Shown: positions 28,489-43,231 of the stretch, in pieces
Layout: each line of letters opens with the position of its first letter
How positions within the stretch are numbered: the stretch's first letter is position 1
Origin: Escherichia phage FFH2
Length of the DNA stretch: 64,000 bases
Reading direction: 5' to 3' (one strand)
Sequence record: KJ190158
Notes under the pieces: model-generated
What the model was told of the DNA's origin: nothing
Databases searched by the model: none
Seen by the model: only the letters and a program-made list of their open reading frames with translations
Program-made: the position numbers and the translations under genes

Positions 28489-28516
28489 AGGACGCTCTGT
28501 GGCGTCCTTTTCTTTA
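28489..28516 (+). terminator. rho-independent terminator
   Basis: aggacgctctgtggcgtcct followed by tttctttat. Confidence 0.65.
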
Positions 28517-29037: not shown

Positions 29038-29156
29038 AGCACCGAGCCCACACAGGTTCCTCATACTAAAGCATGGCCTGAAGAGGCAAACGTGCATAAT
29101 TCCTGCGCATTTGGACGTATAATCCTGTTCACACTCTCATTTCCAGAGGAGATTTT

Positions 29157-29372: not shown

Positions 29373-30823
29373 CACACAATTAGCTGCCCGGCTAAAGTGC
29401 TGGAAGCACCTATAACACATCTTTCAACTAAATTTCCTACCACCACAATCACTTACCTCCCACACATGACTGTTTGCTTGTTTAGTGAGCAGTCATGCCT
29501 TGACATTCTTGCCTATCCTGATAAAATTAAGTTCTTCTCTTTTCTTTTACCGAGTAATTCGGGTTTTCTGTTCTCTTCGGTTTGAAGGGGTATAGAGATA
29601 CACCTGAGTGAACAGGGTGAACAACCGAACATTTGGCTATGGCATTAGCATGGCGAAGCGGACGGGTGACGAAAGAGGGGCCGGAGGACACCAGTCACTG
29701 CCATATGATATATGGGTGATAACCTGAAGAGTCTGAATAAGTGTTTAAGTACCAGTCAGAGGAAAAGGTGAATGGTAGCCGAAGGGGGAGGGGGGTTTCT
29801 TGTATCTTTAATTTGTATATTATGTATACACTTGTAAACCAATCTCATCTGAATTTGTTTACCACACAAAGTGGATAGGGACAAATATTACCTATTAAAC
29901 TTGAATTATTTATAGAAATACCACAACACCACTTAAGTCTTTGATTTTACACACAAATCCTACAGATATTCACCCTCCATATTTAACATACCTGTAACAT
30001 ATTCCATACCCTACCTGACCGATCAATTCACCCAACTACATCCCCATATTTTCCCTGTCTGTACTACCCCTGCCCCGCCGGGAGTCCCGTCATATCTGGC
30101 TTTCCAGCAAATATCACACCCACAAATATCATTGCCTGAAGAGGGTTTCATCCCATAATACATGCCTTACCTGAAGAGCGCTTCATACACCACGTAAATT
30201 TTTTAATTGACCCCCTCCCCGCCGCCGGAGAGGTTGGCTTTTCCCACACAGACCTGAAGAGTCAGCCAGAAATATCTGAACAGGTCCAGCTATGCCACGA
30301 TTTTGTGCTTGTCCTACAGGAGTGCCTCCCTGTCAGGAGCCGGTAGCGACTGGAGTGCTGCCAGGCGGACGAAATGGGAATCATTCTCATTCTTATAACA
30401 ATTCTCAAATATCGAGGCAGTGAGGCAAATTAATAGGTGAGGCCGTTCACACAATGGCACAACATTTGCAACCTATCTTGTGGGAGTGAATGAGAATACC
30501 TATCATTGTGAGAATAGTTATCATTACGGGCAATTTAACATAATACCCATTATGCGCACCACTGGCGATCCATACAGGGATTGATAACATGGGTTACTGT
30601 TTACACACATAACAATTATATTTCTTACTATTTGTGTGGGATATAGTTAGCAGCCGATAGATTAGATATTGACCTGTAGACTTCCAACCGTCCAGACGTC
30701 TAAACGCCCACACAACAAGGGTTATACATACACAACTGAATGTAAACAGGGCCGCAAAAATGCTACCATACAAGCTTGTAAATTTTTCATGCAGCACTTG
30801 ACAAAGAGGAGGAAAACTTGTCT

Positions 30824-30894
30824 GACACTTTAGACACAATAGTGACATAATATGACATAATGGTGACACTGAACATAATTGACATGCCTGACTG
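30824..30894. repeat. helically phased array of TGACA pentamers (about 8 copies at ~10-11 bp spacing)
   Basis: TGACA/AGACA at 30824, 30833, 30844, 30854, 30865, 30881, 30890 (plus 30800) in an ORF-free region. Confidence 0.6.
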
Positions 30895-30928
30895 TTTACA
30901 TAGCTAACTATTCATACAGAAATGATAA

Positions 30929-31161
30929 GCCATGCCATTCGTTTGCATGATAATAATTAACTTGTTTACAATAGATGACATAATATAAAAGCAGGGCAAC
31001 TATTAGAAGATCTATAGTTGCCTTGCTTGTTATGTCATGATTAACTAAATACAAGGCAACTATGATCTGATTAATAGTTTGCAGACAAACTATCACGGGG
31101 GTGATGGTTACTGCTTTTATATTATGTCGCGACTCCGTCGCGCCATGCCATTCGTTTGCAT
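30929..31161. repeat. nested repeat structure: 20-bp direct repeats flanking 18-bp inverted repeats that enclose caactat inverted iterons
   Basis: gccatgccattcgtttgcat occurs at 30929-48 and 31142-61; gacataatataaaagcag at 30977-94 pairs with ctgcttttatattatgtc at 31111-28; ggcaactat..atagttgcc at 30995-31022. Confidence 0.6.
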
Positions 31162-31774
31162 AGTTGCCTTATTGTTACAGATAAAATAATTGTATTGTTA
31201 ATTATTTCTTATCTTTCTCTTAGTCATCTAATGATTCCAGTCAGTATAGTAATGTACAGTAAACATTAGACGACTAAAGATTTCTCTGTTTATTATAACT
31301 TACCGTGACAATTTCAGGCTGTTTACGAAAAATGTTGACACCTGGGCCGATTTATGTTATGCAGTTTACACGAATAATTATTTTATGCAGGTATTGACTA
31401 TTCCGTTATTCTATGGTTGGAATAAATACTTAGCAGACTATAGAATGGTGAGCGTACGTAAATTCTGAGATCTGGCGGCTATAGTTATACTCGATTTTTC
31501 ACGTAGAACACGCTTTTGTTAGTGTGTAAGTGTATGACTTATAAAGATTTTTAGTTGTTGACAAGATATTGAAGATGTGCATCAGGTTAAATTTTGTGCA
31601 ATAGCGGCATTACGTGCAATTTTGAGAGAGAAAACGGGTAAAAATGGCCTTGCTATCACACAATGAAAAATTATGCAATAGTTATTTTACATGTATGTTT
31701 GTACAGTGTGTGGGATTGATGGCTAGTCAATTATTCCACTTGCCAGGCTGGGCCGTTTGTGGTAGGAGAAATAC

Positions 31775-31808
31775 AGACAAAAAGAAAGGGGCCTTTTAAA
31801 GCCCCTGA
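31775..31808 (-). terminator. rho-independent terminator ending the leftward early cluster
   Basis: On the - strand: aggggctttaaaaggcccct followed by ttctttttgtc. Confidence 0.65.
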
Positions 31809-31824: not shown

Positions 31825-32244
31825 TTATAATGATTCGTATATTTCATAGATTCGATTTGCCAGGTCGTTACGGTAGCGGAATTTTTCCTCACGTTTGATC
31901 ATCAGATCTTTAAAGCCATATTCTTTAAGCACTTCATTAACTTTATGGCGGCATACCTTCATATTATCCTGTGCGTCACCAATAAACCTGTTGCTATGGT
32001 GCATGGCTTTAATTTCTTCTTCCAGGACCAGAGCAACTATGCGGACCGGATCAAGCTGATAGGCGGTAACATCCATGCGGCATTGTAAACGACTTTTTAC
32101 GTCTGCCACCGGATATACTGCAACCTCTTCCCCGTCAACATTGACAATAATTAGTTTACCATCGATTTCGAATCCTTTCGCCGCCGGACCGTGACAAAAA
32201 GCGTTATCAAAGCTATATGCCGGATTATTAGATTTAATGTTCAT
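31825..32244 (-). CDS. hypothetical protein (139 aa)
   Basis: ORF; own promoter at 32294-32322 (TTGACA-17-TATATT, - strand). Confidence 0.5.
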   Translation of the reverse strand: MNIKSNNPAYSFDNAFCHGPAAKGFEIDGKLIIVNVDGEEVAVYPVADVKSRLQCRMDVTAYQLDPVRIVALVLEEEIKAMHHSNRFIGDAQDNMKVCRHKVNEVLKEYGFKDLMIKREEKFRYRNDLANRIYEIYESL

Positions 32245-32293
32245 GGTGTTTTTACCTCTTAGTTAATTTTCTTACAACTTCCCTTCAAAAAAG

Positions 32294-32322
32294 AATATAG
32301 CAAAACTGCCGATCCTTGTCAA
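32294..32322 (-). promoter_or_regulatory. sigma70 promoter (TTGACA-17-TATATT)
   Basis: The -35 lies inside the palindrome atccttgtcaaccaaggat. Confidence 0.55.
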
Positions 32323-32390
32323 CCAAGGATAGCATAATTTTTATGTGATCAAGGGGCTTTATTGCCCCCCTGATCGTGCAACTTGTTGTA

Positions 32391-32654
32391 TTATTTGTTG
32401 CTCATCCAGTTTTCCCAAGCTGCCTGATAATCTGCCTCACTGCGGCGGATCTCTTCTTGTTCTTCAAGCCGGATCTCTTCTTCCAGGTACCCCAGGATAT
32501 CGGCTTTTTTGGTCTGGCGTAACATCCAATCATCTTTTTTACGAGTAAAGATCTTATAAGCTTTCTCGCAAACCTCTTTTTTGCTACCTTTTTGGACTTC
32601 AAGAACACGATAAGCCATATATTGAACTAGTTTGAGCTGGTCAAGACGTTTCAT
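32391..32654 (-). CDS. hypothetical basic protein (87 aa)
   Basis: ORF; upstream hairpin gggccttttggccc. Confidence 0.45.
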   Translation of the reverse strand: MKRLDQLKLVQYMAYRVLEVQKGSKKEVCEKAYKIFTRKKDDWMLRQTKKADILGYLEEEIRLEEQEEIRRSEADYQAAWENWMSNK

Positions 32655-32714
32655 AGTGTTTTCCTCTTTGTGCGGTTCTGATTAGTGGGCCTTTTGGCCC
32701 GTGTCATTATCTTA

Positions 32715-32987
32715 TTACTTATGGCGGCAGAATTCAAGCGTTTTTAATTGATAATCTTCCTCAGCCTGGAGTACTACCGCCTCGATCATTTCGTTGGCAT
32801 TGTTAAAGCCATAACCTTTAGCGAACTCATCCGCGCCACCTTCGTGATCATGTTCTGCGTTCATCGCTTCCACAAAATGGAATTCCAAATTGTTGAGGTA
32901 GGGGCTTGATGTTCCGTCCTCTTTTTCGATGAGATCCCAGATAGCATTAAAACGTGATTCGACTTCTTGATTAATCCAGCTTGACAT
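32715..32987 (-). CDS. hypothetical acidic protein (90 aa)
   Basis: ORF; promoter TTGACA-17-TAACAT at 33042-33070 and 5' hairpin gggcacttttgccc. Confidence 0.45.
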   Translation of the reverse strand: MSSWINQEVESRFNAIWDLIEKEDGTSSPYLNNLEFHFVEAMNAEHDHEGGADEFAKGYGFNNANEMIEAVVLQAEEDYQLKTLEFCRHK

Positions 32988-33198
32988 AATGTTTTCCTCT
33001 CTTCTGGTTGTTGTGTGGGCACTTTTGCCCCTTCAAGATAAATGTTACCCCACCCCCTGGCAGATGTCAACGGTTTTTATAGTTCTTATATGACAGGCAG
33101 GCCCGGTGATTGTCTCCCCCCGTCGCCAGGTGCCTGCCGTTGAATAAGTATAACAAAAAACAGGACCATTGCAAGCCCTGTTTTCTAGTCAATAAGGA

Positions 33199-33390
33199 TT
33201 ATATTTTTTCGCCTATGTAGTCCGGTCGGTTTTTCTCTGTCATGCGCTTTAGCAATTCTTGCATGTTACTTATGGCTTGTAGTGTATCCCCTTCCAGGCT
33301 TGAATCAACATAATCAGGATCGTCTATGACCTTTCTATGATTATGATAACGCAGTACCGCTAATACCTTTCTAACTTGTTCGATATTCAT
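33199..33390 (-). CDS. hypothetical protein (63 aa)
   Basis: ORF. Confidence 0.35.
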   Translation of the reverse strand: MNIEQVRKVLAVLRYHNHRKVIDDPDYVDSSLEGDTLQAISNMQELLKRMTEKNRPDYIGEKI

Positions 33391-33539
33391 TTTTACCGCT
33401 CTTTAAAACAAGGTGCCAACCGTTTCCAATAGATCACTGACTACCAGGACAATACTGATCAGCACATACCTAACCATAAGGGGAAAGAGCGCCAGCGATC
33501 CCGCCACAATCCCCAAGGTGATGATTATCTTTCTCATGG

Positions 33540-33824
33540 TTAACGGTTTACGTAAGCTTTACCGTTTACGGTGATGGGCAGATCTTCCAGGTCTGGATCT
33601 TCCTTAAGGTCGCGAGCAAGCTCACCGCACCGGATACCCTCGAATCCGTAGTACTCTGTCGTGCCGTCCTGGAAAGTTTTAGCGGCAAGGCATAAGCGAT
33701 AAGTAACCCCGATTTGATTGACGGCATGAATATCCGTTAGATTAACCTCTTTTGCCAGCTCTTTAGCCATTACAGGCGCATTAAGTCCAACAACCAGGGC
33801 AACCACTGCGATCATCTTTTTCAT
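33540..33824 (-). CDS. small secreted/periplasmic protein (signal peptide)
   Basis: N-terminal MKKMIAVVALVVGLNAPVMA|KE signal-peptide pattern. A 44-aa hydrophobic peptide ORF (33408-33536) follows. Confidence 0.45.
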   Translation of the reverse strand: MKKMIAVVALVVGLNAPVMAKELAKEVNLTDIHAVNQIGVTYRLCLAAKTFQDGTTEYYGFEGIRCGELARDLKEDPDLEDLPITVNGKAYVNR

Positions 33825-33915
33825 TGTGTCTATCCTCTTTCTGCTACGTTTAAGGCGGCGGTAACCGCCTGTTTATGCTTTGTTGGTTAATTTTCGGGTA
33901 TCGGTATAAATTAAA

Positions 33916-34131
33916 CTATGCTGTACGCTCAACTATAACAACGGTTTGGGGGATCTCCCCTTCCACCACTAGTAAGGCCTTTTTCTGCGTGATAGATATC
34001 TTTACCCGTTGCAGCGTGGCGGTGAAGTCTTTCATTTCGTCACGTGGTGTTTTAGTGCAATGCCAGATTTCAGGCTTGCCGATCTGTAAGTTGCGTAAAA
34101 ATTCTGTTTTTCCTGTTTTGTTAGTGATCAT
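33916..34131 (-). CDS. hypothetical protein (71 aa)
   Basis: ORF. A 34-aa hydrophobic peptide ORF (34144-34245) lies upstream. Confidence 0.35.
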   Translation of the reverse strand: MITNKTGKTEFLRNLQIGKPEIWHCTKTPRDEMKDFTATLQRVKISITQKKALLVVEGEIPQTVVIVERTA

Positions 34132-34322
34132 TTGTCAACCTCACCCGATACCGTTGGAAGACAAGATCACATTAGCCATGGTTGCAATCAGGCCAATACC
34201 TAAGGCAATAACCAGGATCACAGCATCAATTAATTTTTGTTTCATGGTGTTTATTCTCTTCTGTTAGTAACCTTATTCATGGGGCCGTAGCAGCGGCCCC
34301 AGGGTAAGGCGGCTATATGCTT

Positions 34323-34568
34323 TTAGTGTTTCATTCCAACCATCGCGGCACGGATCGCCGTAGTGCTGTACTTGAAGCCGTCCGGGGTCTTATCTTGTCC
34401 GGTTAGCTCCAGAAAAAGCATCATATCCCGCGCCGCATCATTACGATTAGCATTGGCGTTAATAAAGCCTTGGGCCAACCGGTACAATGACTCATCGTTA
34501 TTAATCCAAAGGCTTACATTCCAATGAGTTTTGTTTTTGTAACCGTTATAACCTTTATTGCTTTTCAT
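34323..34568 (-). CDS. hypothetical protein (81 aa)
   Basis: ORF. Confidence 0.4.
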   Translation of the reverse strand: MKSNKGYNGYKNKTHWNVSLWINNDESLYRLAQGFINANANRNDAARDMMLFLELTGQDKTPDGFKYSTTAIRAAMVGMKH

Positions 34569-34914
34569 GGTGTTTACCTCTTCTTTGTTCCAGGTGGCGG
34601 ATCATTCTACCACCTTATGTATTATGCTTTGTTAGATGGTTGTTTGTTGTCAAACTATTTTAACGATAATCATCATATGCTTTATTGACCTGGCGAATAT
34701 AACATTCAAAAGCTAGATCAATAGATTTATATTCACGGATATATTCACCGTAGGAAACCACATACATTTCTATAGCTTCCTCATATGCGAGTAGAATAGA
34801 ATCTAAGCCTACGATCTCAGTCTTTGCAATAATAGCCATGATTTTTATCCTCTTTGTGGTTGGTGGGGCTTGTTGCCCCCTTTGATTTATATATTACAGT
34901 CTTATATGGTCATG

Positions 34915-35148
34915 TCAACTATTTTCAAAAAATTTTTCTGCTGTGATATTCTTCCCGGTAGGGTTCGCTACTTTCAAAATTTTATCATGCACTGGACGCC
35001 CAAAAGAATAAGCGCCGTACACAGTAAACCAATAATCGCCGTCAGGTTGTACTATTACCGCCGCATATGGTACGCCTTTTTCGTTTTTGCTGACAAAATA
35101 GATCACATTGCCATTAATAGCCTCAGCGCGTTTAATTTGTTCCATCAT
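34915..35148 (-). CDS. hypothetical protein (77 aa)
   Basis: ORF; upstream hairpin ggggcttgttgcccc. Confidence 0.4.
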   Translation of the reverse strand: MMEQIKRAEAINGNVIYFVSKNEKGVPYAAVIVQPDGDYWFTVYGAYSFGRPVHDKILKVANPTGKNITAEKFFENS

Positions 35149-35202
35149 GATGATTTACCTCTCTTTATTTTCATAATTGGGGCCTTTTCGGCCCCGCCAG
35201 GT

Positions 35203-35487
35203 TTATTTATTGATAGCGTGCAGTGGGAAAGGTACGCCAGGTTGATAAATAACCTTTACAACCTCATCAGGACAAAAGAAGTTGCAGAACTCACCGCAAT
35301 ATGCCTCATCCTCTTTCAACTCTTCATCAACATACTCAAAAAAGTAGTCGATGCTTGGATAATCCTGGCCGGGATTATAGTCAACCATCGTTAATAATAA
35401 CTCTTGATCATTCCGTAGGATGTGCATACCCGCTTTTAAGTATTTTGCTTCCATTTCTACTACATCGCCAGCGGTAACAATAGCCAT
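35203..35487 (-). CDS. hypothetical acidic protein (94 aa)
   Basis: ORF; promoter TTGCAT..caatatggaTAATAA and 5' hairpin gggggaggccccc upstream. Confidence 0.45.
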   Translation of the reverse strand: MAIVTAGDVVEMEAKYLKAGMHILRNDQELLLTMVDYNPGQDYPSIDYFFEYVDEELKEDEAYCGEFCNFFCPDEVVKVIYQPGVPFPLHAINK

Positions 35488-35689
35488 GATTTTAACTCCT
35501 ATCTATCTGGTCAACGATTGGGGGCCTCCCCCTCGACAACTCTTATTATCCATATTGTCGGGAATGATGCAAGTACTTCTTTAAAAATTTTTTAAGCGCC
35601 CCGTATGCCGTTGTAACGCCAAAATAATAAAGGCCATGCGGTTGCATGGCCTTTATGTGATTATATTGCTGCAGGCCCTGCTAGGGGCC

Positions 35690-36040
35690 TTATTTTGCAT
35701 TCTTGCCTGTATTGCCGCCACGGTACCAGCGTCTGCGGTGAAAATGGTAATAATCACCCTCGGCATTAAACATCAGATGATTTTCAATAACCAGCTTACG
35801 AAGGTAGGCCGGATCTTGTTCCATTCTTGCCAGATTCCAGCGGCTGTTACGTAAGCGTATAAATTCCATATTCAGGCCGTTGATTGCAGTATGGATGTCA
35901 AAGTAACCACCTTTGAGACGTTCACGCATGGCGTTAAGCTCAACACAATATACAGATTTCTCACAAATCAAGGTATTAGCTATGGCGCGGACCTGGGCAA
36001 GGGGGTTAAGCTCATTAAGGTAATATAGTTTTATTTTCAT
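35690..36040 (-). CDS. hypothetical protein with basic C-terminus (116 aa)
   Basis: ORF. Confidence 0.45.
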   Translation of the reverse strand: MKIKLYYLNELNPLAQVRAIANTLICEKSVYCVELNAMRERLKGGYFDIHTAINGLNMEFIRLRNSRWNLARMEQDPAYLRKLVIENHLMFNAEGDYYHFHRRRWYRGGNTGKNAK

Positions 36041-36057
36041 AAAATCACCTGCTGAAA

Positions 36058-36366
36058 TTAGTTTGAGAAAACATCGTTCACAATAGCGATCACAATGCCG
36101 CCCACCTTGTCACGGTCAACAACGCACAAATCACCATAGATCATGCGGTAGTCTGGATGATCTTTCACAGAATAGTCAATAAGTGTTTTCTTGTCGTCCA
36201 GCTTCGTAACTTCCATTCTCATAACGATATGAGAATCATCAAAGGCATTATTCCGAAAAGTCATAGCCTGACCGCCAGGGCACCCGGTGATCTCCACTTC
36301 CACACCATCTACGATCTGACCATCAAAGAAATAAAGATTATTAGCCTGGATAAACATGTCTATCAC
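36058..36366 (-). CDS. hypothetical protein (102 aa)
   Basis: ORF; conserved 45-bp element copy 1 immediately upstream. Confidence 0.45.
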   Translation of the reverse strand: MIDMFIQANNLYFFDGQIVDGVEVEITGCPGGQAMTFRNNAFDDSHIVMRMEVTKLDDKKTLIDYSVKDHPDYRMIYGDLCVVDRDKVGGIVIAIVNDVFSN

Positions 36367-36403
36367 TCCTTGTTAACTGCGTGGTCTTTTAACAGGGTTT
36401 AAA

Positions 36404-36448
36404 TTTACTTTATTGATGGCCCTGAAGTCAAGGCCATCTAAAAATAAA
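36404..36448 (-). repeat. conserved 45-bp intergenic element, copy 1 (hairpin GATGGCC..GGCCATC with TTGACT in loop, then CAATAAAGTAAA)
   Basis: Near-identical copies at 40146-40190 and 40764-40810. On the - strand it reads as -35 TTGAC(T/G) plus 18 bp plus TAAA(C/T)T. Confidence 0.6.
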
Positions 36449-36450
36449 TT

Positions 36451-36651
36451 TTACAGGCCTACAATCTCTTTGATTCGTTTAACCGCCGCCTCAGCGCCTT
36501 GGGGGTAAAAATTATGGTAACCAATCACGCGAGTGATACTAATCGCCGTTTGATGATCTTCATAGTCGCCCTTGAAGATTTCTTGACCGTCAATCAGCAC
36601 GGCAATTTTTTCTTCTTTTTTGAAGTTAATAACGCGGATATTGTTGCTCAT
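36451..36651 (-). CDS. hypothetical protein (66 aa)
   Basis: ORF; promoter and ggggaaacatcccc hairpin upstream. Confidence 0.4.
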   Translation of the reverse strand: MSNNIRVINFKKEEKIAVLIDGQEIFKGDYEDHQTAISITRVIGYHNFYPQGAEAAVKRIKEIVGL

Positions 36652-37129
36652 TTTTGTTTCTCCTTTCTGGTTTTTGTGTTGGTGGGGATGTTTCCCCGTT
36701 GATTGTTATTATCCATATTGCGGACCAGATTGCAACACCCTGGAAGAAAAATTTTTTGAAAAAGTTAAGCCCCCATGATCGGGGGCGTTATCAGTTACTT
36801 ATAGCAATAAAGTACATTCCTACCCCTAACAATATTTCAAGGGCGATGATCTCAAGCCATACCATAACACGGCGCACCTTATCAGCGCATGGCTTATCCT
36901 TGGTTGTCATCGTCTCCCCCTTCCCTCCTGTTAGTAGTGACGTGGTTTACAATGGCCCCCAGGAGTCCTATCACCACGCACACCACAAGAAAAATTATCT
37001 CCGCTGTTGTTCGATCCATTGTTATAAAATTCCTCAAGATCAGGCCTGAAAATAAAGCGTTCGTTATTGAATCCGTCACGCCAGGCGGCTGGCTTCAAAT
37101 CTTCACTAAAGGGATTAATTAACGTGACG

Positions 37130-37503
37130 TTATTTAAACGGCTGGTCCACATATTTTCTATTCCTCTCAAATAGGCGATCCGCCTCAGTTAAACATATCT
37201 CATGGGCTTGGTCTCTGGTTTTAGCCTCATCAAAAACCTGTTGTGCCAGGCTGCAGCGTAGGGAGACTGGAAGATCACTATAATAGGCGTTGACAAACGT
37301 TTGTGCGTCATACAGGTCGGAAAACACTTTACCCTTTCTATTATCGCCCTTGTCAACAATTGCAAGGATAACCAATACAATAGTTGCAACCACTCCCAGG
37401 AAAATAGATATAACAAACCATAGAAAAGCGGATCTACCTATCTTGCCAGCGATCCAGGCGTTGAACAAGGCAACTACTACAGCCAAAATAATAAATTCCA
37501 TTC
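37130..37503 (-). CDS. membrane protein (2-3 TM helices; start ATG 37503)
   Basis: gaggtacatag RBS; hydrophobic stretches. Confidence 0.45.
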
Positions 37504-37565
37504 TATGTACCTCTTTTGCAGTTCTGTTTAACAATAAGGCGGCAAATATGCCGCCTGTTACCTGA

Positions 37566-37946
37566 TTAAAAATTATCGCCGTAAATCTTTCCGCTTTCTG
37601 CCCACACCACCACGCGGGGCATGTTATCCCATACATCTTGTTTCAGATTTAACGCGTGCAATTCTTCGGTGGTGCTCATACCAGGCACGGGCTGATTGTA
37701 TACTGCAAAACGACCACCTGCATAATCATAGGCCAGGGTTAAATCACACTGAATCATCTTTTTGATCATGGCGTTGAGCATAGCGTTAGCCGCATACTGG
37801 TCACGTTTTAAAGGCAACTCTTTGATTAGTTTGCGATAGTTTTCAATGTGATCGCACACTGTTTCACGTGGAAGATCTTTCATATCCTCGCGAAAGGTAA
37901 CCAGGTTAAACATAACGGTGTCAATAGCTTTAGTAGTGTTTTTCAT
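37566..37946 (-). CDS. hypothetical protein (126 aa)
   Basis: ORF; promoter TTGCAA-17-TATATT (37999-38027) and 5' hairpin ggggcaaacgtcttgcccc (37971-37990). Confidence 0.5.
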   Translation of the reverse strand: MKNTTKAIDTVMFNLVTFREDMKDLPRETVCDHIENYRKLIKELPLKRDQYAANAMLNAMIKKMIQCDLTLAYDYAGGRFAVYNQPVPGMSTTEELHALNLKQDVWDNMPRVVVWAESGKIYGDNF

Positions 37947-37998
37947 AATGTTTTCCTCTTTGTTTTGTGTGGGGCAAACGTCTTGCCCCCTTGAGTTT

Positions 37999-38027
37999 TA
38001 ATATAGCAGGTTTTTAGATTATTGCAA
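37999..38027 (-). promoter_or_regulatory. sigma70 promoter (TTGCAA-17-TATATT)
   Basis: Hexamers with 17-bp spacer upstream of a 5' stem-loop and the gene at 37946. Confidence 0.5.
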
Positions 38028-38035
38028 CACTTTAT

Positions 38036-38659
38036 TTATGAAAAACTCATCTCTCCATATTCATCTACATCAAACCGCCAATCATTGGCCTCAATAAGGC
38101 CGATCAGGTTTTCGGTAGTGAACTGCTCTAGATAGGCCTCCTCCAGGTCTACGTAAACCTTGCGGGATAGCTCCCGTACCGTCTCGGTGATCAGCTCTTC
38201 CAGGTCTTCCACTTTGTTTTCTTGTTTGGCGGTCAGATCTAGCCAGGTGGTATCAATGTATCCGCTTACAGTGTTTTCATGGCTGTAATGGCTGTACTTG
38301 TCGCGTTCAATACTGGCTGATAACTCGCCATCGTGCATTGTGCCGAACAAGTGACGAATTGATCGGAACTTGGTCAGGGCCTTTACTTTACGCAAGAATT
38401 TTTCTAAATCCACGTTTTCAGCACTGATTGACGCGCCGTCACCCTGGCACCAAAAGCCGGACCAATGTACATCGGTATCTTCAAGGCCGTACTCTGGAAA
38501 AACTTGTTCTTTATAATATTCAATTACACTTTCTGCGAAAAAATCCTCTCCGCTGTGTTCTTCTCTTTCGCGGACCATTTCAATAGCTTTTTCTTTTTGT
38601 TCGTCGGTCAGCACGTCGAAAGATAAATTGCAACCTGTGGTAATGTTAACGGTGGTCAT
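38036..38659 (-). CDS. hypothetical highly acidic protein (207 aa)
   Basis: ORF; promoter TTGACA-16-TATAAT at 38717-38744 and 5' hairpin ggcgggaagttttcccgcc (38688-38706). About 25% D+E. Confidence 0.5.
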   Translation of the reverse strand: MTTVNITTGCNLSFDVLTDEQKEKAIEMVREREEHSGEDFFAESVIEYYKEQVFPEYGLEDTDVHWSGFWCQGDGASISAENVDLEKFLRKVKALTKFRSIRHLFGTMHDGELSASIERDKYSHYSHENTVSGYIDTTWLDLTAKQENKVEDLEELITETVRELSRKVYVDLEEAYLEQFTTENLIGLIEANDWRFDVDEYGEMSFS

Positions 38660-38716
38660 GATATTTTCTCCTGTTTTCTTTGTTAGTGGCGGGAAGTTTT
38701 CCCGCCTGTGTGTTTA

Positions 38717-38744
38717 ATTATACTTATTGAGATTTACTTGTCAA
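38717..38744 (-). promoter_or_regulatory. sigma70 promoter (TTGACA-16-TATAAT)
   Basis: Consensus hexamers on the - strand. Confidence 0.6.
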
Positions 38745-38994
38745 CACTATTTTTTAAATTATTGTGGCGCAAAATGTTTAAAATCTCTTCAACGTCATCA
38801 ACACGGCGGCAATTTTTAAACGCTACCAATTGCCCCATGATTTTAATCACTGGGCGGCCTTGCCAGTGCCCCTGGAGAAAGCGCGCCTTGACTTTATCGG
38901 TGGGACTATCACGCCACCAAATGGCCTTGTTATTGCAGTAGTAAAAATTATTCAGGACAATATCAACTTTATCAAAATTTTTTAATTTACGCAT
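38734..38994 (-). CDS. hypothetical basic protein (86 aa)
   Basis: ORF. Confidence 0.4.
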   Translation of the reverse strand: MRKLKNFDKVDIVLNNFYYCNNKAIWWRDSPTDKVKARFLQGHWQGRPVIKIMGQLVAFKNCRRVDDVEEILNILRHNNLKNSVDK

Positions 38995-39239
38995 AGTGTT
39001 TACTCCTTCCTTCTTGCTTTGATGTGGTTAGTATATCCGGACTATTCCAAGGTGTCAAGCTTTAAATAAAATCACTGTCAATGATATTTTTAACACCATA
39101 AAACGGCCCTAGGCGATGTTTTCAGGTTAATAAAGGGGATTGCATAGGTAGGGGCTTTTGTGGCGTTTGTGGGGCCAACCAGGGGCGCTATTCGTAGGAT
39201 AGAAATAAAAAGCCCCGCACAATGGCGGGGCGTTGGTTG

Positions 39240-39437
39240 CTATTTGTCTTTGTGGCGGTATCGTTCCGCCTGTCGTTCACGTTCCAAAAGCAGGCCCGGT
39301 AATTTGCGATCATAGTGATTTCTCCAGATCTTCCCGAACCTTTTCGGTTTATTCAGTTTATTGTTACGCTGGCGGCGTTCCGGCAGCTCTTCGGAATCGT
39401 GGGGGCGCTTTACAATTTTTTCGAAATTAATTTTCAT
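39240..39437 (-). CDS. hypothetical very basic protein (~65 aa, start MKINFEK)
   Basis: aaagggggcg RBS; R/K-rich. Confidence 0.4.
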   Translation of the reverse strand: MKINFEKIVKRPHDSEELPERRQRNNKLNKPKRFGKIWRNHYDRKLPGLLLERERQAERYRHKDK

Positions 39438-39798
39438 AAACGCCCCCTTTACTGATCTCAATATTTGCCTGAATCGCCCGGATACGACGTTTTATAGTCT
39501 CCTGATCCTTGCAATCATATCCCCAAAAGTCTACGATTTTTGCGCCGCCAGCCTTTAAGCGGTATAATGTTTCTTGCATCTTGTAAGCTGGGATCGGTCT
39601 CGGTGTTACCTGGTCCCCTTTCCCATCCTTGTACTTGATAATGTAGTCTTCGTTGTCGTTGAATACCCAAAATGGGTATTCTGTAAGCGCGTTGCTCTCT
39701 TTTTCGTTTTTGGATTGGATCTTGTTTACAATTAAAGCCGTAGCAATAGCGCCAATAATAAAACTTGCCCCGCTGATCATGTTACTTTCTCCTTTCAT
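39427..39798 (-). CDS. hypothetical protein with N-terminal TM helix (123 aa)
   Basis: ISGASFIIGAIATALIV hydrophobic segment. Confidence 0.45.
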   Translation of the reverse strand: MKGESNMISGASFIIGAIATALIVNKIQSKNEKESNALTEYPFWVFNDNEDYIIKYKDGKGDQVTPRPIPAYKMQETLYRLKAGGAKIVDFWGYDCKDQETIKRRIRAIQANIEISKGGVYEN

Positions 39799-39856
39799 TG
39801 TGCTGATAAACTATCTTTATAGATGGCCCTGCCACCAGGACCACCGAAAAAACAGT

Positions 39857-40102
39857 TTATTTGACGATACCGACAAAACAGATCCCGCCTTCCCCTATAT
39901 AGGCAATATCGGTAATTTTATAATTTGTCAAGATCCGCGTGTTCAGATCATTAATAAAATCGGTCATCGCGTTGGTGTAGTTGTCTTCCGTGTCTAAGGC
40001 ATAATCCCAGGTGTAAACCTTTTTACGTCCGAAGCCTTTTACCATGATACGGGCGCTTTTGGTGTTGGTAGGGGCATAATATTTGGTAATTAGTGCGGCC
40101 AT
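39857..40102 (-). CDS. hypothetical protein (81 aa)
   Basis: ORF; conserved 45-bp element copy 2 (40146-40190) upstream. Confidence 0.45.
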   Translation of the reverse strand: MAALITKYYAPTNTKSARIMVKGFGRKKVYTWDYALDTEDNYTNAMTDFINDLNTRILTNYKITDIAYIGEGGICFVGIVK

Positions 40103-40191
40103 TGTTTTAACTCCTCTATATTAGTTCAGTGTTAACAGTGTAAAGTTTACTTTATTGATGGCCCTGGAGTCAAGGCCATCTAAAAATAAAT

Positions 40192-40533
40192 TTACTCGTT
40201 TTCTTCCAGTTCTGCAAGCTCTTCTTTCACTTCTTCAAGCTCTGTCTGTAATTCTTGGTATTCTTCATCGTCCTCAATATCCAGGCTGTCGATGTAGTCG
40301 CTAAATCCGCAGCGGTAAGCGATAGGATCTAGCTCCTTGAGGATACGCGACGGAAGAAAAGAAATGTTTCCGATCATAATTTCGCCGTAGATCTCGTCTA
40401 ACCATTCATCATAGTTTTCGTCGTACTTGTCCTCGTCGATTTCAAAGTTATCGATCTTATTCTCAAGGTCTGCGATCTGTTTTTTCAGCGCGGCGATCTG
40501 CATGGCTTTTTCTGCGGCGGTCATAGTAGTCAT
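40192..40533 (-). CDS. highly acidic coiled-coil protein (113 aa); possible DNA mimic
   Basis: About 30% D/E (ELEEVKEELAELEENE, DEDKYDENYDEW). Size and charge resemble Ocr-type anti-restriction proteins. Promoter TTGACA-16-TATACT and 5' hairpin gggaaaacttccc upstream. Confidence 0.45.
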   Translation of the reverse strand: MTTMTAAEKAMQIAALKKQIADLENKIDNFEIDEDKYDENYDEWLDEIYGEIMIGNISFLPSRILKELDPIAYRCGFSDYIDSLDIEDDEEYQELQTELEEVKEELAELEENE

Positions 40534-40810
40534 GGTGTTTTCTCCTTTTGTGTGTTCTGGGAAGTTTTCCCGTTTATGTGTTTAGTATACTGATCTAAGT
40601 TAGCTTGTCAATTAAAAGTTTAAGAAAAATTTTGCGATACCGTTGGCGCTACCCATCAACATTTGCGCCAGGATGTAACCAATGATGCAAACGATAATAG
40701 TTACCTTTGTGTGCTGGCGTGTAGTACTCATCTTCAAGCCTCCTTTTAGCTTAACTGGGATTAGTTTACTTTATTGATGGCCCTGGCGTCAAGACCATCT
40801 AAAAATAAAC

Positions 40811-41206
40811 TTAGTAAGTTTTCAGTACTTTCCCGTCCAATCTGTCAAGCTGGATCTCGATAGCTGCAGAAAACCTATTATAAACCACATCGCCCATGGA
40901 GTCCAGCCAATCTATGACGTTATACACCTGCTCTTTATTCTTGCAAGTCCGGATCCGTTTCATTACGTAAGACGGATCAATATTAGTGCTCTCGTTGTTG
41001 TGGTCATGCGCCTGGCCTGCTGCATTAGTTATAGATTTTACAACCACCTGAAAGGGCTTTAAGGTGCCTTTTGCGTTCATCTCACGCGCTTTTGCGGCGC
41101 GGTTGTTATATGTTACACAACGGCGGCAAATGTTGACCAAATGCATATCAATAATTTTTTCATCGTTTGCCAGTTCGTTCATGATGCGGCGTACGTTCTT
41201 ATTCAT
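40811..41206 (-). CDS. hypothetical protein (131 aa)
   Basis: ORF; promoter TTGACA-16-TAAACT and hairpin ggcgggaatgtttcccgcc upstream. A 35-aa hydrophobic peptide ORF (40624-40731) lies downstream. Confidence 0.45.
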   Translation of the reverse strand: MNKNVRRIMNELANDEKIIDMHLVNICRRCVTYNNRAAKAREMNAKGTLKPFQVVVKSITNAAGQAHDHNNESTNIDPSYVMKRIRTCKNKEQVYNVIDWLDSMGDVVYNRFSAAIEIQLDRLDGKVLKTY

Positions 41207-41292
41207 GATCTTTTTCCTTTGTGTTGGCGGGAAACATTCCCGCCTTTTGTGCCCAGTTTACTTTAATTTTGCAGCGTGTCAATAATTTTTTT

Positions 41293-41691
41293 TTATTCGT
41301 GGGCGCATGTCACAATGTGCTTTTTATACCCCAGGTGGGCAGCAAGTGCTGACAAAAACTCATCTTCATAGATCCAGCCGTTGGCAGTGATCCCCATAGC
41401 ATTTAACGCGCTTTCAAGTGCTGCATTGGCCTTATCATAACCGTGACCGCTCGCCTTGCCACCAGTATAACCGTACTTGTTGTTCTTGCTGTCGTGCATC
41501 CAAAAGACGCAATAATGAGTGTTACCGCTGGAGGCGGCATAGTACCGGATCTCCGCTACTTCGTGCAAATTATTATCATCGTCCAGGCCAACCAGATTAT
41601 AAGCCTTGTAAAATCCACGATCACGGCGGCAGTTCTTGACATCAGAAAAAGAGAAGTCGGCATTGTCAAAATTAAAGGTTGTGGTTTTCAT
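41293..41691 (-). CDS. hypothetical protein (132 aa)
   Basis: ORF. Confidence 0.45.
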   Translation of the reverse strand: MKTTTFNFDNADFSFSDVKNCRRDRGFYKAYNLVGLDDDNNLHEVAEIRYYAASSGNTHYCVFWMHDSKNNKYGYTGGKASGHGYDKANAALESALNAMGITANGWIYEDEFLSALAAHLGYKKHIVTCAHE

Positions 41692-41755
41692 GATTTTATC
41701 CTCTTAGTGTCTTTTGTGATTTCAGTATATTTTGTGTCGGGGCGTATGTCAATAC

Positions 41756-41953
41756 TTATTTTTTATTAAACCAGTGATTGATCTGACCTTTTGTCAGGGC
41801 GCAACGATTAAGTTGGTGCCGGGTATAGCTCTGACCGCGACGGAATTTATAAAGGCCTTGCCCGTTGTTGATGGTTACGTCCACCTGGCAAACCATTTGA
41901 TCGGTGACCACCTGGCGAGCGTTGCGACGTACTTTGATTCCGTAGGCGTTCAT
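41756..41953 (-). CDS. hypothetical basic protein (65 aa)
   Basis: ORF. A ~58-aa ORF (42041-42217) lies upstream. Confidence 0.35.
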   Translation of the reverse strand: MNAYGIKVRRNARQVVTDQMVCQVDVTINNGQGLYKFRRGQSYTRHQLNRCALTKGQINHWFNKK

Positions 41954-42374
41954 GATTTTTTATCCTCTCTGTTAATTAGTGTGGTGTTGTTCACCTTGCG
42001 AGGATAAGAATAACAAGAACTGTCCGAGCTGTCAACTATTAGTTAAAATTATTTTTTGGGCGGAATTCTCCAGCCGCCGCCCCTGCCAGGTTAACCATCA
42101 TTTTTTCGTACTCTTCTTTATATTCCAACGCTCCCGCTATAGCCTTTTCAACCAGGGCGATAGCCTCAGCGTCATTAATAGCTACATTTTCCAGGGGGAT
42201 CATATTACCTTTCATTTTTGTACCTCCTCTTCAATTGTTACCTATCCTATAGCATAGGCCCACCAGGTTTACAAGCCTTCATTCTCTCCTACCTGGTCAG
42301 TTAGGTCCTGCCAGGCTGGCCCCACTAGGTTGCAGCGGTTAGTGCATCAGGTTAGAAAAATTTTTTGAAAAGTG

Positions 42375-42403
42375 TTGACAGCGGCCCCGCCAGGTGGCAC
42401 AAT
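42375..42403 (+). promoter_or_regulatory. promoter-like site (TTGACA-17-CACAAT), module copy B
   Basis: Consensus -35 with a weak -10. Followed by structured element B (42421-42456) and Fur-box-like palindrome 42475-42496. Confidence 0.35.
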
Positions 42404-42518
42404 ATACCTATCGAAAGGACGGCAGGCACCGGTGACGGGGGAGACAACCACCGGGGATGGGCGCTGCATAAAATGAGAACGGTTATCATTATCATTTAAA
42501 AATTTATGCAAAAAATCC

Positions 42519-42546
42519 TTGCTTTCTTTGTCCTGTGTGATACTAT
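42519..42546 (+). promoter_or_regulatory. promoter-like site (TTGCTT-16-TACTAT), module copy C
   Basis: Followed by element C (42571-42595) and Fur-box-like palindrome gagaATGATTATCATTc (42611-42627). Confidence 0.4.
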
Positions 42547-42739
42547 AATAACAAGCCGGGGCAACAGGGGCCGGGAGACAATCACCGGGCCTGCCCGTTA
42601 TTCTGCAAACGAGAATGATTATCATTCAAAATTCTAAATGAGAACTCCTCGCATTTAATAAATTTAATTAGCACGCTAATTACACTCCGTAACAATTTAC
42701 TATAAAATAGTATCCACTAAAATATTCCCATATAGAAAT

Positions 42740-43200
42740 TTTAAAAATCCATTTCTGAAAACGAAAAATCGATTTCGTCCCTAAAAATTTCAGGCCTAGA
42801 TCCGGAACGATTTCCAGAAAATCCGATTCAGAAAACGAAAAACAGATCGAGTACTGAGAAATTTATCGAGAAAAATTTTCAGAAAATCCAAGCCCTGAAA
42901 TGAAAAGTAGATCGAGTACCTGGAAAGCTGCACCGCAACTTCAAGATAGTGGTTAGATTGTTACCATAGAAGGTCAAGGGTAAGTGGAGGAAGTTCTAGT
43001 AGAGGGAGGTTAGCATGTGTGGGAAATCTATAATGGTGGCCTGGAATATAGTGCAAACGATAGGATGAGTTATTCAGCTTGTCGCGCCTACTCTGAAAAA
43101 TCCATTTTAGTTTTCGATCCATTTTCTGATTTTCTAAGAATTTTAAAATATCCGGCCCGGTGAAATATCAAAAGGAGGAAATCCATTTTAGAAATCCCCC
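42740..43200. repeat. iteron-like direct repeats (gaaaacgaaaaa; agatcgagtac; aaatccatttt)
   Basis: gaaaacgaaaaa at 42757 and 42832; agatcgagtac at 42844 and 42909; aaatccatttt three times. ORF-free. Confidence 0.5.
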
Positions 43201-43231
43201 TTATACTTGATATGCCAGGAATTTTCAAGTA

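Follow-up and report, generated by a model that had tools for sequence, protein, structure and literature searches.

Conserved promoters with adjacent stem-loops serve about half of the small leftward genes in a variable region of Escherichia phage FFH2 and may give early mRNAs a protective 5' hairpin

Within a 64,000-nucleotide (nt) stretch of DNA from Escherichia phage FFH2 (sequence record KJ190158; the whole stretch is referred to as the window), the region between positions 31825 and 42260 is occupied by 30 minus-strand genes, g02 to g31, which span 31825-42215 and encode proteins of 34-207 amino acids (aa). The genes were called from the list of open reading frames (ORFs), their ribosome-binding sites and the annotations of relatives. 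As all 30 proteins match a PHROG family from end to end we take the genes to be real; each of these families is labelled 'unknown function'. The intergenic spaces, of 60-90 nt, are filled by compact cassettes of a sigma70-type promoter and a short GC-rich hairpin, which serve about half of the 30 genes. A previous reading of the sequence (the original prediction) had correctly described about 30 small leftward genes here, and had proposed both that almost every gene has its own promoter, with a GC-rich hairpin and then a ribosome-binding site behind it, and that the products are devoted to host takeover and counter-defence.

The region matches 288 phage records, 69 of which are 90-96% identical to it over 80% or more of its length, and these 69 are without exception rV5-like myoviruses of the genus Vequintavirus. 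Examples of this genus among the matching records are A6-1, SophiaRose, AlexBoehm, Murica and variants of rV5, and the window is 93-96% identical to A6-1, AlexBoehm and Murica. Following the gene order of AlexBoehm, the equivalent stretch is the distal end of a long leftward block that contains rIIB, helicases, a primase/helicase, a Dcm-like methyltransferase and DNA polymerase, continues with about 55 small hypothetical genes and faces a rightward nucleotide-metabolism block across ~2.5 kb of non-coding DNA. The sign of the GC skew flips at ~28-30 kb of the window, as expected for the convergence of leftward and rightward units. The island of small genes had been thought to end at ~42.3 kb, a boundary that does not hold, since small genes continue beyond 42260 as far as ~51 kb, where they reach the DNA polymerase gene. 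In the rV5 genome paper, which proposed the same four units of transcription, nine sigma70-type promoters (P164, P168, P174, P185, P186, P192, P194, P195 and P195A) and four terminators (t164, t177, t181 and t184) were predicted in the equivalent stretch. From this list g31 can be equated with gp164, g29 with gp168, g22 with gp174, g12 with gp185, g11 with gp186, g07 with gp192, g05 with gp194 and g04 with gp195.

On the coding (minus) strand between 31.8 and 42.3 kb there are 29 sigma70-like sites, as against 13.1 +/- 3.2 in dinucleotide shuffles (z ~5) and 6 on the plus strand. An independent promoter scan of 30-45 kb returned 58 sites where 35.2 +/- 5.5 were expected. Short perfect GC-rich hairpins number 45, compared with 8.0 +/- 3.5 in shuffles (z ~10), and combinations of a promoter followed by a hairpin 6-7, compared with 0.1; the rest of the window holds one comparable minus-strand cassette, at ~61.1 kb. 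Nine of the window promoters had been predicted independently for rV5. While the enrichment is thus real and strand-specific, the claim that almost every gene has its own promoter is true only for 15-17 of the 30. A sigma70 site scoring at least 9/12 is present within 110 nt upstream of 15 genes, and the sites of g20 and g30 score only 8/12, yet are conserved. A further five genes have a hairpin only or a poor promoter site, and eight (g10, g14-g16, g19, g25, g27 and g28) are operonic or translationally coupled, where operonic means less than 25 nt after the previous gene or overlapping it, and g14 is counted as following a terminator without a promoter.

The examples quoted in the original prediction are all in place: TTGACA-16-TATAAT followed by ggcgggaaaacttcccgcc at 38717-38744, TTGCAA-16-TATATT followed by ggggcaagacgtttgcccc at 38000-38027 (which had been given in its plus-strand reading) and TTGACA-17-TATATT at 32294-32322. 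The last of these, the promoter of g31, has no hairpin after it. The recurring promoter sub-families could be traced as well, with CAATATGGATAATAA occurring exactly twice and CAATAAAGTAAACT in four copies, of which two are exact, one has 1 mismatch and one has 2. When viral_contigs was scanned with the 15-mer CAATATGGATAATAA for more orthologues of the cassettes, only chance matches in unrelated contigs were returned.

The proposed order of promoter, hairpin and ribosome-binding site is seen at nine genes, g05, g07, g12, g13, g17, g20, g22, g29 and g30, the cassettes of which we call type A. Here the -35 box is often immediately preceded by the stop codon of the upstream gene, the promoter is usually TTGACA with a spacer of 16-17 nt, and 8-12 nt (mode 10) separate the -10 box from a hairpin of 5-8 bp, after which 19-32 nt with a strong ribosome-binding site remain to the ATG. 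At three other genes (g06, g08 and g18; type B) the 7-bp stem instead encloses the -35 box, and the whole cassette is a 41-nt repeat, TTTAGATGGCCTTGACnCCAGGGCCATCAATAAAGTAAACT, present in 3 copies against 0 expected, with a T-rich tract upstream rather than downstream of the stem. The stems of the cassettes are of the form GGGG/CCCC or GGCGGG/CCCGCC, and by eye an A/T-rich tract can be recognised upstream of the -35 box, as in aaaaaaaaatta (g05), aatttaaaaaatag (g12), caaaaaatttttc (g17), ttaaaaaatttttaaag (g20), gaaaaattttttgaaaa (g22) and aaatttattttta (type B). Between the type-A hairpin and the ribosome-binding site the leader is composed of A 58%, C 26%, G 10% and T 6% (84% A+C), compared with 33/20/23/25% regionally. 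In the 8 nt after the stem seven of the nine type-A hairpins have 0-1 T, whereas the six canonical terminators of the region have 5-7. Assuming that transcription starts 7 nt after the -10 box, the predicted 5' untranslated regions (5'UTRs) of all nine fold to a single hairpin that lies 2-6 nt from the start and leaves the ribosome-binding site and AUG unpaired; in eight of the nine the fold has a z-score of -1.8 to -5.4.

To follow the evolution of the type-A cassettes, all nine were aligned with 10-12 Vequintavirus relatives and the variable columns were counted for each part. None of the 54 columns of the -35 hexamers varies and 9 of the 57 columns of the -10 hexamers do; the variable fraction is 0.32 in the spacers, 0.34 at third codon positions, 0.25 in the stems and 0.71 in the loops. 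The probability of seeing no change in the -35 boxes would be ~2e-10 if their columns evolved independently like third codon positions, a value that serves as a rough guide only. The invariance of these columns indicates that the promoters are under purifying selection. The g23 promoter (34620-34655) is polymorphic in its spacer, which is 21 nt between TTGACA and CATAAT in the window and five relatives and 17 nt in A6-1, isim and AlexBoehm, by way of a 4-nt deletion; this should toggle the promoter between weak and canonical forms.

The changes in the hairpins are of several kinds. The g13 hairpin (37971-37989) is present as its exact reverse complement in FV3 and is lengthened by matching insertions in SYGMH1, the g26 hairpin is also an exact reverse complement in FV3, that of g24 is nearly so in rV5_ev158, and the loop of the g05 hairpin (41226-41244) changes from TGT to ACA in one relative. 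A stem pair of g20 goes from G-C in the window through G-U in WalterGehring and JLBYU08 to A-U in an IMG/VR relative; this compensatory series was read from per-sequence folds, MAFFT slipping the G and C runs out of register. G-U intermediates also occur in g12 of the relative L012 and in the type-B copy before g09 and, since such pairs form in RNA and not in DNA, they favour a role at the level of RNA. With different stems at the same position, inversions that keep the stem, a compensatory series and stem extensions, the type-A hairpins are evidently selected as structures and not as sequences. The type-B stems are invariant in the relatives and give no covariation signal either way. phAPEC8, of another subfamily (Stephanstirmvirinae), has five cassettes at the equivalent locus; their promoters have a 16-nt spacer, the hairpin follows the -10 box by 10-14 nt and a ribosome-binding site comes next. 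On this comparison the cassette design is evidently older than the genus Vequintavirus.

Two further observations concern the hairpins. In-place reverse complementing, in which the stem is kept and the loop flipped, was seen at 4 of 13 hairpins among 12 genomes (comparison with L007, L009 and L012), and the loops have twice the share of variable columns found at third codon positions. Together these suggest that template switching driven by the palindromes is frequent.

As would be expected of accessory genes, close relatives differ in the content of the region by single genes. Thus g19 is missing in RudolfGeigy, FV3 and SYGMH1, where it leaves a precise gene-sized gap (35700..36044), and g27 is missing, again with a gene-sized gap, in Murica, JLBYU08 and isim. 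Similarly, g28 and g31 are absent from FV3 and SYGMH1, g26 from SYGMH1 and g23 from RudolfGeigy and WalterGehring, and in FV3 and SYGMH1 unrelated sequence stands in place of g22-g24. An additional gene of 312 nt is present between g28 and g29 in most relatives. Its insertion site (33158-33191) lies inside a terminator/promoter hairpin cassette, and the gene brings with it a different hairpin/-35 element of the same design. The coding sequence of g23 (34329-34564), without its flanks, is found at 80-86% nt identity in the jumbo coliphages (310-370 kb) SD-1_S14, Sharanji, SP27 and JP4 and also in A7_1 and the 42.7-kb phage PGT2, which points to recent single-gene horizontal transfer between unrelated phages.

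The best explanation for the region is that it represents the distal, gene-by-gene variable end of the leftward early/replication unit, downstream of the rIIB, helicase, primase and DNA polymerase genes. It would seem rather probable that its accessory ORFans are transcribed early by the host polymerase and that their mRNAs start with a protective 5' hairpin, with start sites, timing and the effect on stability all predicted. The idea of an individually promoted early region survives in part, as the promoters are of the host type and conserved, the late-promoter motif TGGTAAAATA proposed for rV5 has no intergenic match in the region and genes come and go singly, but it holds for only about half of the genes. 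Late transcription of the region was rejected because that motif is absent from the intergenic spaces. From their type and conservation, the cassette promoters would be fired by unmodified host RNA polymerase once the DNA enters the cell. The spacing seen in the cassettes would then have the transcript start 2-6 nt before the hairpin, such that the mRNA would carry a 5'-terminal stem-loop. A stem-loop in this position stabilises mRNA in E. coli (Emory, Bouvet and Belasco 1992, as cited in PMC7509114). Like the 5' stem-loop of ompA, those of the cassettes may shield the mRNA from 5'-end-dependent decay through RppH/RNase E, and the U- and G-poor leader would stay unstructured, allowing efficient translation. 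Where RNA reads through from upstream promoters, the same hairpins might also serve as barriers or attenuators, and cassettes and gene-boundary junctions would presumably be the sites at which single genes are gained, lost or swapped, an outcome that is seen among the relatives. The products are probably dispensable early proteins that act on the host.

A number of points weigh against this account. The searchable literature on rV5-like phages yielded no transcription start site or time course, and a search for Vequintavirus transcriptomes or characterised early genes found nothing, so that both 'early' and '5'-terminal' are inferences. Protection is reportedly limited to about 4 unpaired nt at the 5' end. 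With the start placed 7 nt after the -10 box, which is a predicted and not a mapped position, 2-6 nt are unpaired 5' of the hairpin; a start 9-10 nt after the box would leave the hairpin flush with the 5' end or cut by it, and one at 5 nt would give a single-stranded tail too long for protection. The 5'UTR of g20 folds no better than shuffled sequence (z -0.2). Four strong promoters, those of g03, g04, g11 and g31, have no hairpin, and conversely the hairpins before g21, g23, g24 and g26 have no convincing promoter, which means that hairpins must also have a role independent of promoters. Substitutions that weaken the stem are present in g12 of A6-1 and RudolfGeigy and in g05 of JLBYU08. Finally, the junctions of the g19 and g27 indels are at plain operonic gene boundaries without a cassette; as many indel junctions are of this kind, cassette recombination is not the sole route of gene flux and is perhaps not the main one.

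That the promoter and hairpin strings are due to chance, compositional noise or an annotation artefact has next to no probability. While sigma70-like hexamer pairs are common in AT-rich DNA, and shuffles of the region still give ~13, the excess of promoters and hairpins is strand-specific and large, the spacing is fixed, the -35 boxes are invariant, the changes preserve structure and the same design is present in phAPEC8; shuffle enrichment, analysis of the hairpin variants and column conservation between them refute this reading. A more substantial alternative is the one originally proposed for the promoter-early stem-loop (PeSL) cassettes of T4-type phages, in which the hairpins terminate or attenuate upstream transcription, such that each gene is expressed from its own promoter only and early transcription does not spill downstream. 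A PeSL stem-loop of RB49/phi1 lowered lacZ expression to about the same extent as the rrnB T1 terminator, and in some subclasses of PeSL the stem-loop is situated downstream of the -10 box or over the -35 box (PMC2839356). The hairpins here are also GC-rich, with GGGG...CCCC stems as in PeSLs, some are without a promoter (g21, g24 and g26), and the degenerate type-B copy has retained its stem despite the decay of its promoter. However, neither type is a canonical intrinsic terminator, with A/C-rich sequence after the type-A hairpins (0-1 T in 8 nt for seven of the nine) and the T-tract of type B lying upstream, and canonical T-tract terminators are used elsewhere in the same region. Insulation would also leave unexplained why the hairpin is fixed 8-12 nt after the -10 box, inside the new transcript, when a position before the promoter would suffice. 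We therefore regard it as unlikely that insulation is the main role of the hairpins; their location a short, fixed distance into the new transcript, the lack of a U-tract and the CA-rich leader favour a 5' stabilising stem-loop. Sense-strand intrinsic terminators were rejected for the nine type-A and three type-B hairpins, there being no U-tract directly after the stem. Little weight is given to reading several hairpins flagged by the scan as plus-strand (antisense) terminators; the T-richness of the plus strand at these hairpins is weak and simply mirrors the A-rich sequence that separates the -10 box from the hairpin on the opposite strand. Antitermination hairpins of the lambda nut/boxB type, considered for the 5-bp GC stems with A-rich loops, were discarded, since the loops differ from each other, 71% of their columns vary and the orientation flips. 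No Rfam family reached threshold in a scan of 28-46 kb, which gave two sub-threshold hits only.

The palindromes might instead function as DNA, either as operators through which a regulator shuts the early promoters off, particularly those of type B, or as cruciform or template-switch sites for shuffling, with the RNA hairpin a by-product. The type-B stem GATGGCC/GGCCATC is indeed invariant in 10-12 relatives in which neighbouring loop bases vary, and the 41-nt repeat is kept in three copies; moreover, the in-place inversion of whole hairpins shows that palindrome events take place at the DNA level, the extra-gene site of most relatives is within a hairpin cassette and PeSLs have been shown to recombine into mini-circles (PMC2839356). 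The type-A stems, on the other hand, differ between cassettes and evolve by compensatory substitution and so could not be recognised by any one protein, the G-U intermediates (g20 of WalterGehring and JLBYU08, g12 of L012 and the g09 copy) pair in RNA and not in DNA, and several indel junctions have no cassette. On balance, a purely DNA-level role seems quite unlikely. As a long shot, to which we attach little credence, the hairpin and the U/G-poor leader could be a lineage-wide 'self' mark of the early mRNAs of rV5-like and phAPEC8-like phages, enabling them to survive 5'-end-dependent or single-strand-specific RNA decay that is either unleashed or boosted by the phage for host shutoff or triggered by a defence, with one or more unknown early products being the matching decay factor; separately, the type-B palindrome could be the operator of an unknown early-to-middle switch protein. 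A different question is whether the products form a concentrated arsenal of anti-restriction, anti-CRISPR, anti-abortive-infection (anti-Abi) and host-shutoff genes. The architecture would fit by analogy, with early host-type promoters, small ORFans and gene-by-gene flux, as would the seven acidic small proteins, the membrane and secreted proteins and the one member of the T7 gene 1.1 family (g10), and g23 and g12 are common to unrelated coliphages, as expected for portable accessory functions. Against this, none of the 30 proteins by sequence, nor g12 and g23 by model, matches a characterised counter-defence or takeover protein; no likeness to Ocr, ArdA, anti-CRISPRs, Acb/Tad/Gad and similar proteins was found in the 30 sequences or in the folds of the g12 and g23 models. 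The six small membrane or membrane-anchored products would be more typical of superinfection exclusion or envelope functions. Furthermore, to the restriction-modification systems tested the Vequintavirinae are "exceptionally susceptible", Abi systems commonly hit them as well (PMC8594841), and they are targeted both by Druantia III and by ARMADA II (PMC13463889). The restriction test set of PMC8594841 included AlexBoehm/Bas56, which carries a copy of the region ~95% identical to this one, arguing against an effective anti-restriction gene here, and an Ocr-like function in the group is unlikely. The arsenal is therefore doubtful, if not without some chance of being right, and the host-takeover and counter-defence products of the original prediction found no functional match in Pfam, PHROGs, NCBIfam, PADLOC, PDB sequences or the two fold searches.

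The mix of secreted, membrane, very basic and very acidic proteins described earlier is found among the products (Table 1): seven are acidic, with isoelectric points (pI) of 4.1-4.7 (g02, g07, g12, g18, g20, g22 and g29), several are basic (pI >9.5), six are small and membrane, membrane-anchored or hydrophobic (g06, g09, g14, g16, g24 and g27) and one, g26, has a start resembling a signal peptide. The statement that no product falls in a known family was nearly right. Two of the 30 pass a Pfam gathering threshold, g10 as Phage_1_1 (PF08200, T7 gene 1.1 protein; 44.2 bits with a cut-off of 21, E 2.6e-11), a family of unknown function, and g23 as DUF7249 (PF23907; 49.8 bits with a cut-off of 27, E 7e-13). 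In T7, gene 1.1 is an early gene. PDB sequences gave no match at E up to 1 for the 30 proteins joined as one query, and NCBIfam and PADLOC nothing meaningful for the 30 joined into three, although concatenated queries may lose some sensitivity. Structure models were made for g12 and g23 only and both are confident. Fold searches with the g12 model found no significant PDB neighbour, and that of g23 (predicted local distance difference test score 88.2) showed only a non-significant winged-helix likeness to topoisomerase IV/gyrase A (E above 2). The g23 family has 353 homologues detected across several phage groups, and all 120 of those listed carry PF23907; a literature search on DUF7249 found nothing. 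A number of function labels are attached to these proteins in GenBank records of relatives (YeeU-like antitoxin, acetyltransferase, phosphonoacetaldehyde hydrolase, DNA translocase FtsK, Rel homology domain and holin). None was reproduced by Pfam or NCBIfam, and the fold searches gave no support to those for g12 either. The membrane-protein operon g14-g16 (37130-37556) has no promoter of its own and comes immediately after a canonical terminator; it could therefore be expressed only by read-through, an arrangement that suggests deliberately low expression.

Table 1. Cassettes, other promoters, terminators, further hairpins and genes of the region, in window coordinates. Promoters are written as -35 box, spacer length and -10 box, and the distance that follows is from the -10 box to the hairpin.
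Feature	Position	Strand	Description
Type-A cassette g05	41226..41282	-	TTGACA-16-TAAACT, 10 nt, hairpin ggcgggaatgtttcccgcc; 5'UTR fold -14.6 kcal/mol, z -4.3; loop inverted in L012
Type-A cassette g07	40559..40611	-	TTGACA-16-TATACT, 12 nt, hairpin gggaaaacttccc
Type-A cassette g12	38688..38744	-	TTGACA-16-TATAAT (12/12), 10 nt, hairpin ggcgggaaaacttcccgcc; z -5.4
Type-A cassette g13	37971..38027	-	TTGCAA-16-TATATT, 10 nt, hairpin ggggcaagacgtttgcccc
Type-A cassette g17	36684..36735	-	TTGCAA-16-GATAAT, 10 nt, hairpin ggggaaacatcccc; three loop variants in relatives
Type-A cassette g20	35520..35572	-	TTGCAT-16-GATAAT, 12 nt, hairpin gggggaggccccc; nine stem/loop variants
Type-A cassette g22	34865..34918	-	TTGACA-16-TAATAT, 11 nt, hairpin ggggcaacaagcccc
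Type-A cassette g29	33017..33070	-	TTGACA-17-TAACAT, 11 nt, hairpin gggcaaaagtgccc
Type-A cassette g30	32687..32737	-	TTGAAT-17-TAAGAT, 8 nt, hairpin gggccaaaaggccc
Type-B cassette g06	40763..40803	-	hairpin GATGGTC/GGCCATC around -35 box TTGACG, then TAAACT
Type-B cassette g08	40144..40184	-	copy of the 41-nt repeat
Type-B cassette g18	36402..36442	-	copy of the 41-nt repeat
Degenerate type-B hairpin before g09	39822..39845	-	stem kept with two G-U pairs; -35 and -10 boxes lost
Promoter g03, no hairpin	42007..42035	-	rV5 P195A
Promoter g04, no hairpin	41724..41752	-	rV5 P195
Promoter g11, no hairpin	39030..39058	-	rV5 P186
Promoter g31, extended -10, no hairpin	32294..32322	-	rV5 P164
Intrinsic terminator after g10	39212..39231	-	7 T in next 8 nt
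Intrinsic terminator after g13	37537..37556	-	rV5 t184
Intrinsic terminator after g16	36769..36786	-	rV5 t181
Intrinsic terminator after g19	35627..35656	-	rV5 t177
Terminator after g28	33147..33187	-	loop carries TTGCAA, then TGtTATACT: terminator/promoter overlap, related to type B; counted among the six canonical terminators as 33154-33187
Intrinsic terminator ending leftward unit	31787..31806	-	rV5 t164
Hairpin in g23 leader	34592..34615	-	promoter TTGACA..CATAAT
Hairpin before g26	33853..33870	-	no recognisable sigma70 promoter
Hairpin before g24	34281..34300	-	no recognisable promoter
Hairpin before g21	35179..35195	-	ggggccgaaaaggcccc; no clear promoter
g02	42039..42215	-	58 aa, acidic; phrog_21957 full length; no sigma70 site of at least 8/12 upstream
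g03	41756..41953	-	65 aa, basic (pI 10.7); phrog_7119; own promoter 42007-42035
g04	41293..41691	-	132 aa, rV5 gp195; phrog_7028; own promoter 41724-41752
g05	40811..41206	-	131 aa, rV5 gp194; phrog_13245; type-A cassette upstream
g06	40612..40731	-	39 aa, single hydrophobic segment; phrog_16391; type-B cassette upstream
g07	40192..40533	-	113 aa, pI 4.1, coiled-coil-like, rV5 gp192; phrog_9294; Pfam coiled-coil hits sub-threshold only; type-A cassette upstream
g08	39857..40102	-	81 aa; phrog_3199; type-B cassette upstream
g09	39427..39780	-	117 aa, N-terminal hydrophobic anchor; phrog_12734
g10	39240..39437	-	65 aa, T7 gp1.1-like; 11-nt overlap with g09
g11	38734..38994	-	86 aa, basic, rV5 gp186; phrog_11241; own promoter 39030-39058
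g12	38036..38659	-	207 aa, acidic, rV5 gp185; conserved motifs SGFWxQGDGAS, YSHENTV; type-A cassette upstream
g13	37566..37946	-	126 aa; phrog_7352; type-A cassette upstream
g14	37130..37501	-	123 aa, two hydrophobic segments; phrog_13090; 'putative holin'/'membrane protein' in relatives; right after terminator, no promoter
g15	36931..37152	-	73 aa, overlaps g14; phrog_12060
g16	36791..36910	-	39 aa, hydrophobic; phrog_13629
g17	36451..36651	-	66 aa; phrog_12347; type-A cassette upstream
g18	36058..36357	-	99 aa, acidic; phrog_7366; type-B cassette upstream
g19	35690..36040	-	116 aa, basic; phrog_8549
g20	35203..35487	-	94 aa, acidic; phrog_12610; type-A cassette upstream
g21	34915..35148	-	77 aa; phrog_9227; hairpin upstream, no clear promoter
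g22	34660..34839	-	59 aa, acidic, rV5 gp174; phrog_9374; type-A cassette upstream
g23	34323..34568	-	81 aa, DUF7249; horizontally mobile
g24	34141..34245	-	34 aa, hydrophobic; phrog_14631; hairpin 34281-34300 upstream
g25	33916..34131	-	71 aa, basic; phrog_5988; 9 nt after g24
g26	33540..33824	-	94 aa, signal-peptide-like N-terminus MKKMIAVVALVVGLNAPVMA; phrog_9845
g27	33403..33537	-	44 aa, hydrophobic; phrog_16005
g28	33199..33390	-	63 aa; phrog_9599
g29	32715..32987	-	90 aa, acidic, rV5 gp168; phrog_7287; type-A cassette upstream
g30	32391..32654	-	87 aa; phrog_11701; type-A cassette upstream
g31	31825..32244	-	139 aa, rV5 gp164; phrog_12277; last gene of leftward unit; own promoter 32294-32322

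Among described systems the closest is the PeSL cassette, known from the hyperplastic regions of the T4-type phages RB49/phi1, T4/PST and KVP40/nt-1, for which promoter, terminator and recombination (mini-circle) activity has been shown experimentally (Arbiol et al. 2010, PMC2839356; Comeau et al. 2014, PMC4122927). In both, the intergenic space before small ORFans is packed with an A/T-rich tract, a strong promoter of the sigma70 type and a GGGG...CCCC stem-loop, the stem-loop falls into positional subclasses that include one over the -35 box (type B here) and one downstream of the -10 box (type A here), and the location is the most variable part of the genome, with single-gene indels between close relatives. 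All four structural and contextual features of a PeSL, namely the promoter, the adjacent stem-loop at a set position, the A/T tract and the hyperplastic ORFan context, are thus present; as for the position of the stem-loop, 9 hairpins follow the -10 box at 8-12 nt and another 3-4 have the -35 box inside them. The lineage, however, is Vequintavirinae/Stephanstirmvirinae rather than Straboviridae and there is no sequence similarity. While PeSL stem-loops are commonest between the boxes or over the -10 box, the dominant class here comes after the predicted start, 8-12 nt from the -10 box and ahead of a CA-rich leader, which would suit a function in the new transcript and not one in termination. 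Many of the indel junctions here are without a cassette. A literature search found no paper linking PeSLs with rV5-like phages. The cassettes are best filed as PeSLs of variant geometry. For this group there appears to be no earlier description of the hairpin design, of its conservation in two subfamilies or of the way it evolves, the promoters being partly known from rV5.

Other comparisons are instructive for parts of the design. In phAPEC8 the equivalent position carries elements annotated as 'PHIRE promoter' (GenBank JX561091), in which a TTGACA-16-TAATAT-type promoter is followed after ~10 nt by a GC hairpin and then by a ribosome-binding site and a small ORFan. There, three cassettes share the identical hairpin GTAGGGCGGCAATGGTGCCG, which the annotators labelled as promoter, whereas here every type-A hairpin differs. 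The ompA 5'UTR likewise has a short stable hairpin a few nt from its 5' terminus, followed by a leader without structure and the ribosome-binding site, and the loop sequence is irrelevant; this hairpin is a feature of one gene, while here the element is found at 9-10 promoters of one region and the 5' ends are predicted from the -10 box. Lytic coliphages have early accessory regions such as the class I genes 0.3-1.3 of T7, the pre-early genes of T5 and the early ORFan clusters of T4. These also consist of small non-essential genes under host-polymerase promoters, and a homologue of T7 gene 1.1 is present here. They differ in having products with proven roles (Ocr, gp0.7, A1, Alc and others); none of the products here is characterised, and the phage group is restriction-sensitive.

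Several features were noted around the genes. The ~3 kb of non-coding DNA between the convergent units (window 28500-31800) corresponds to the 'non-coding' box of the rV5 paper. Its AT-rich part, at 30.6-31.65 kb (GC 0.33-0.37), has clusters of repeats, both direct and inverted (GGCAACTAT, GACATAATAT), together with two exact copies of the 20-mer GCCATGCCATTCGTTTGCAT, at 30929 and 31142. This repeat region resembles an origin or a packaging site, and several GenBank relatives begin their numbering inside it. At the other end, 42260-43230 is gene-poor and holds GC hairpins and a caaaaaattttt tract similar to those upstream of the cassette promoters. The ORF g01 (42347-42625) in this interval is doubtful; it is annotated in Murica and not in AlexBoehm, in the alignment of which a 117-nt gap falls inside it. 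No tRNA genes were found in the window. By eye, and without statistics, CCWGG (Dcm) sites recur beside GC hairpins in 31.8-42.4 kb, for example in cctggcggggcc, ccagcctggcagg and ccacctggaac; a Dcm-like cytosine methyltransferase is encoded in relatives (AlexBoehm bas56_0071). Among the database matches, 23 records named 'Campylobacter phage' (MG0656xx; host C. jejuni) are 92-95% identical to this coliphage region. Several of these are unannotated partial genomes, and they look like mislabelled or contaminant rV5-like coliphage sequences.

The rV5-like phages belong to the coliphages that are isolated most often and are candidates for use in therapy and biocontrol, and yet about a quarter of their genes, including all 30 described here, are without known function and their regulation is likewise obscure. 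A map of conserved promoters and variable genes can guide the choice of units for takeover and counter-defence screens. The fixed position of the hairpin just after the predicted start provides a simple and testable idea, that of 5' protection of early mRNAs. If the likeness holds true, PeSL-like cassettes would exist outside the T4-type phages and would represent a general solution for expressing and exchanging small accessory genes.

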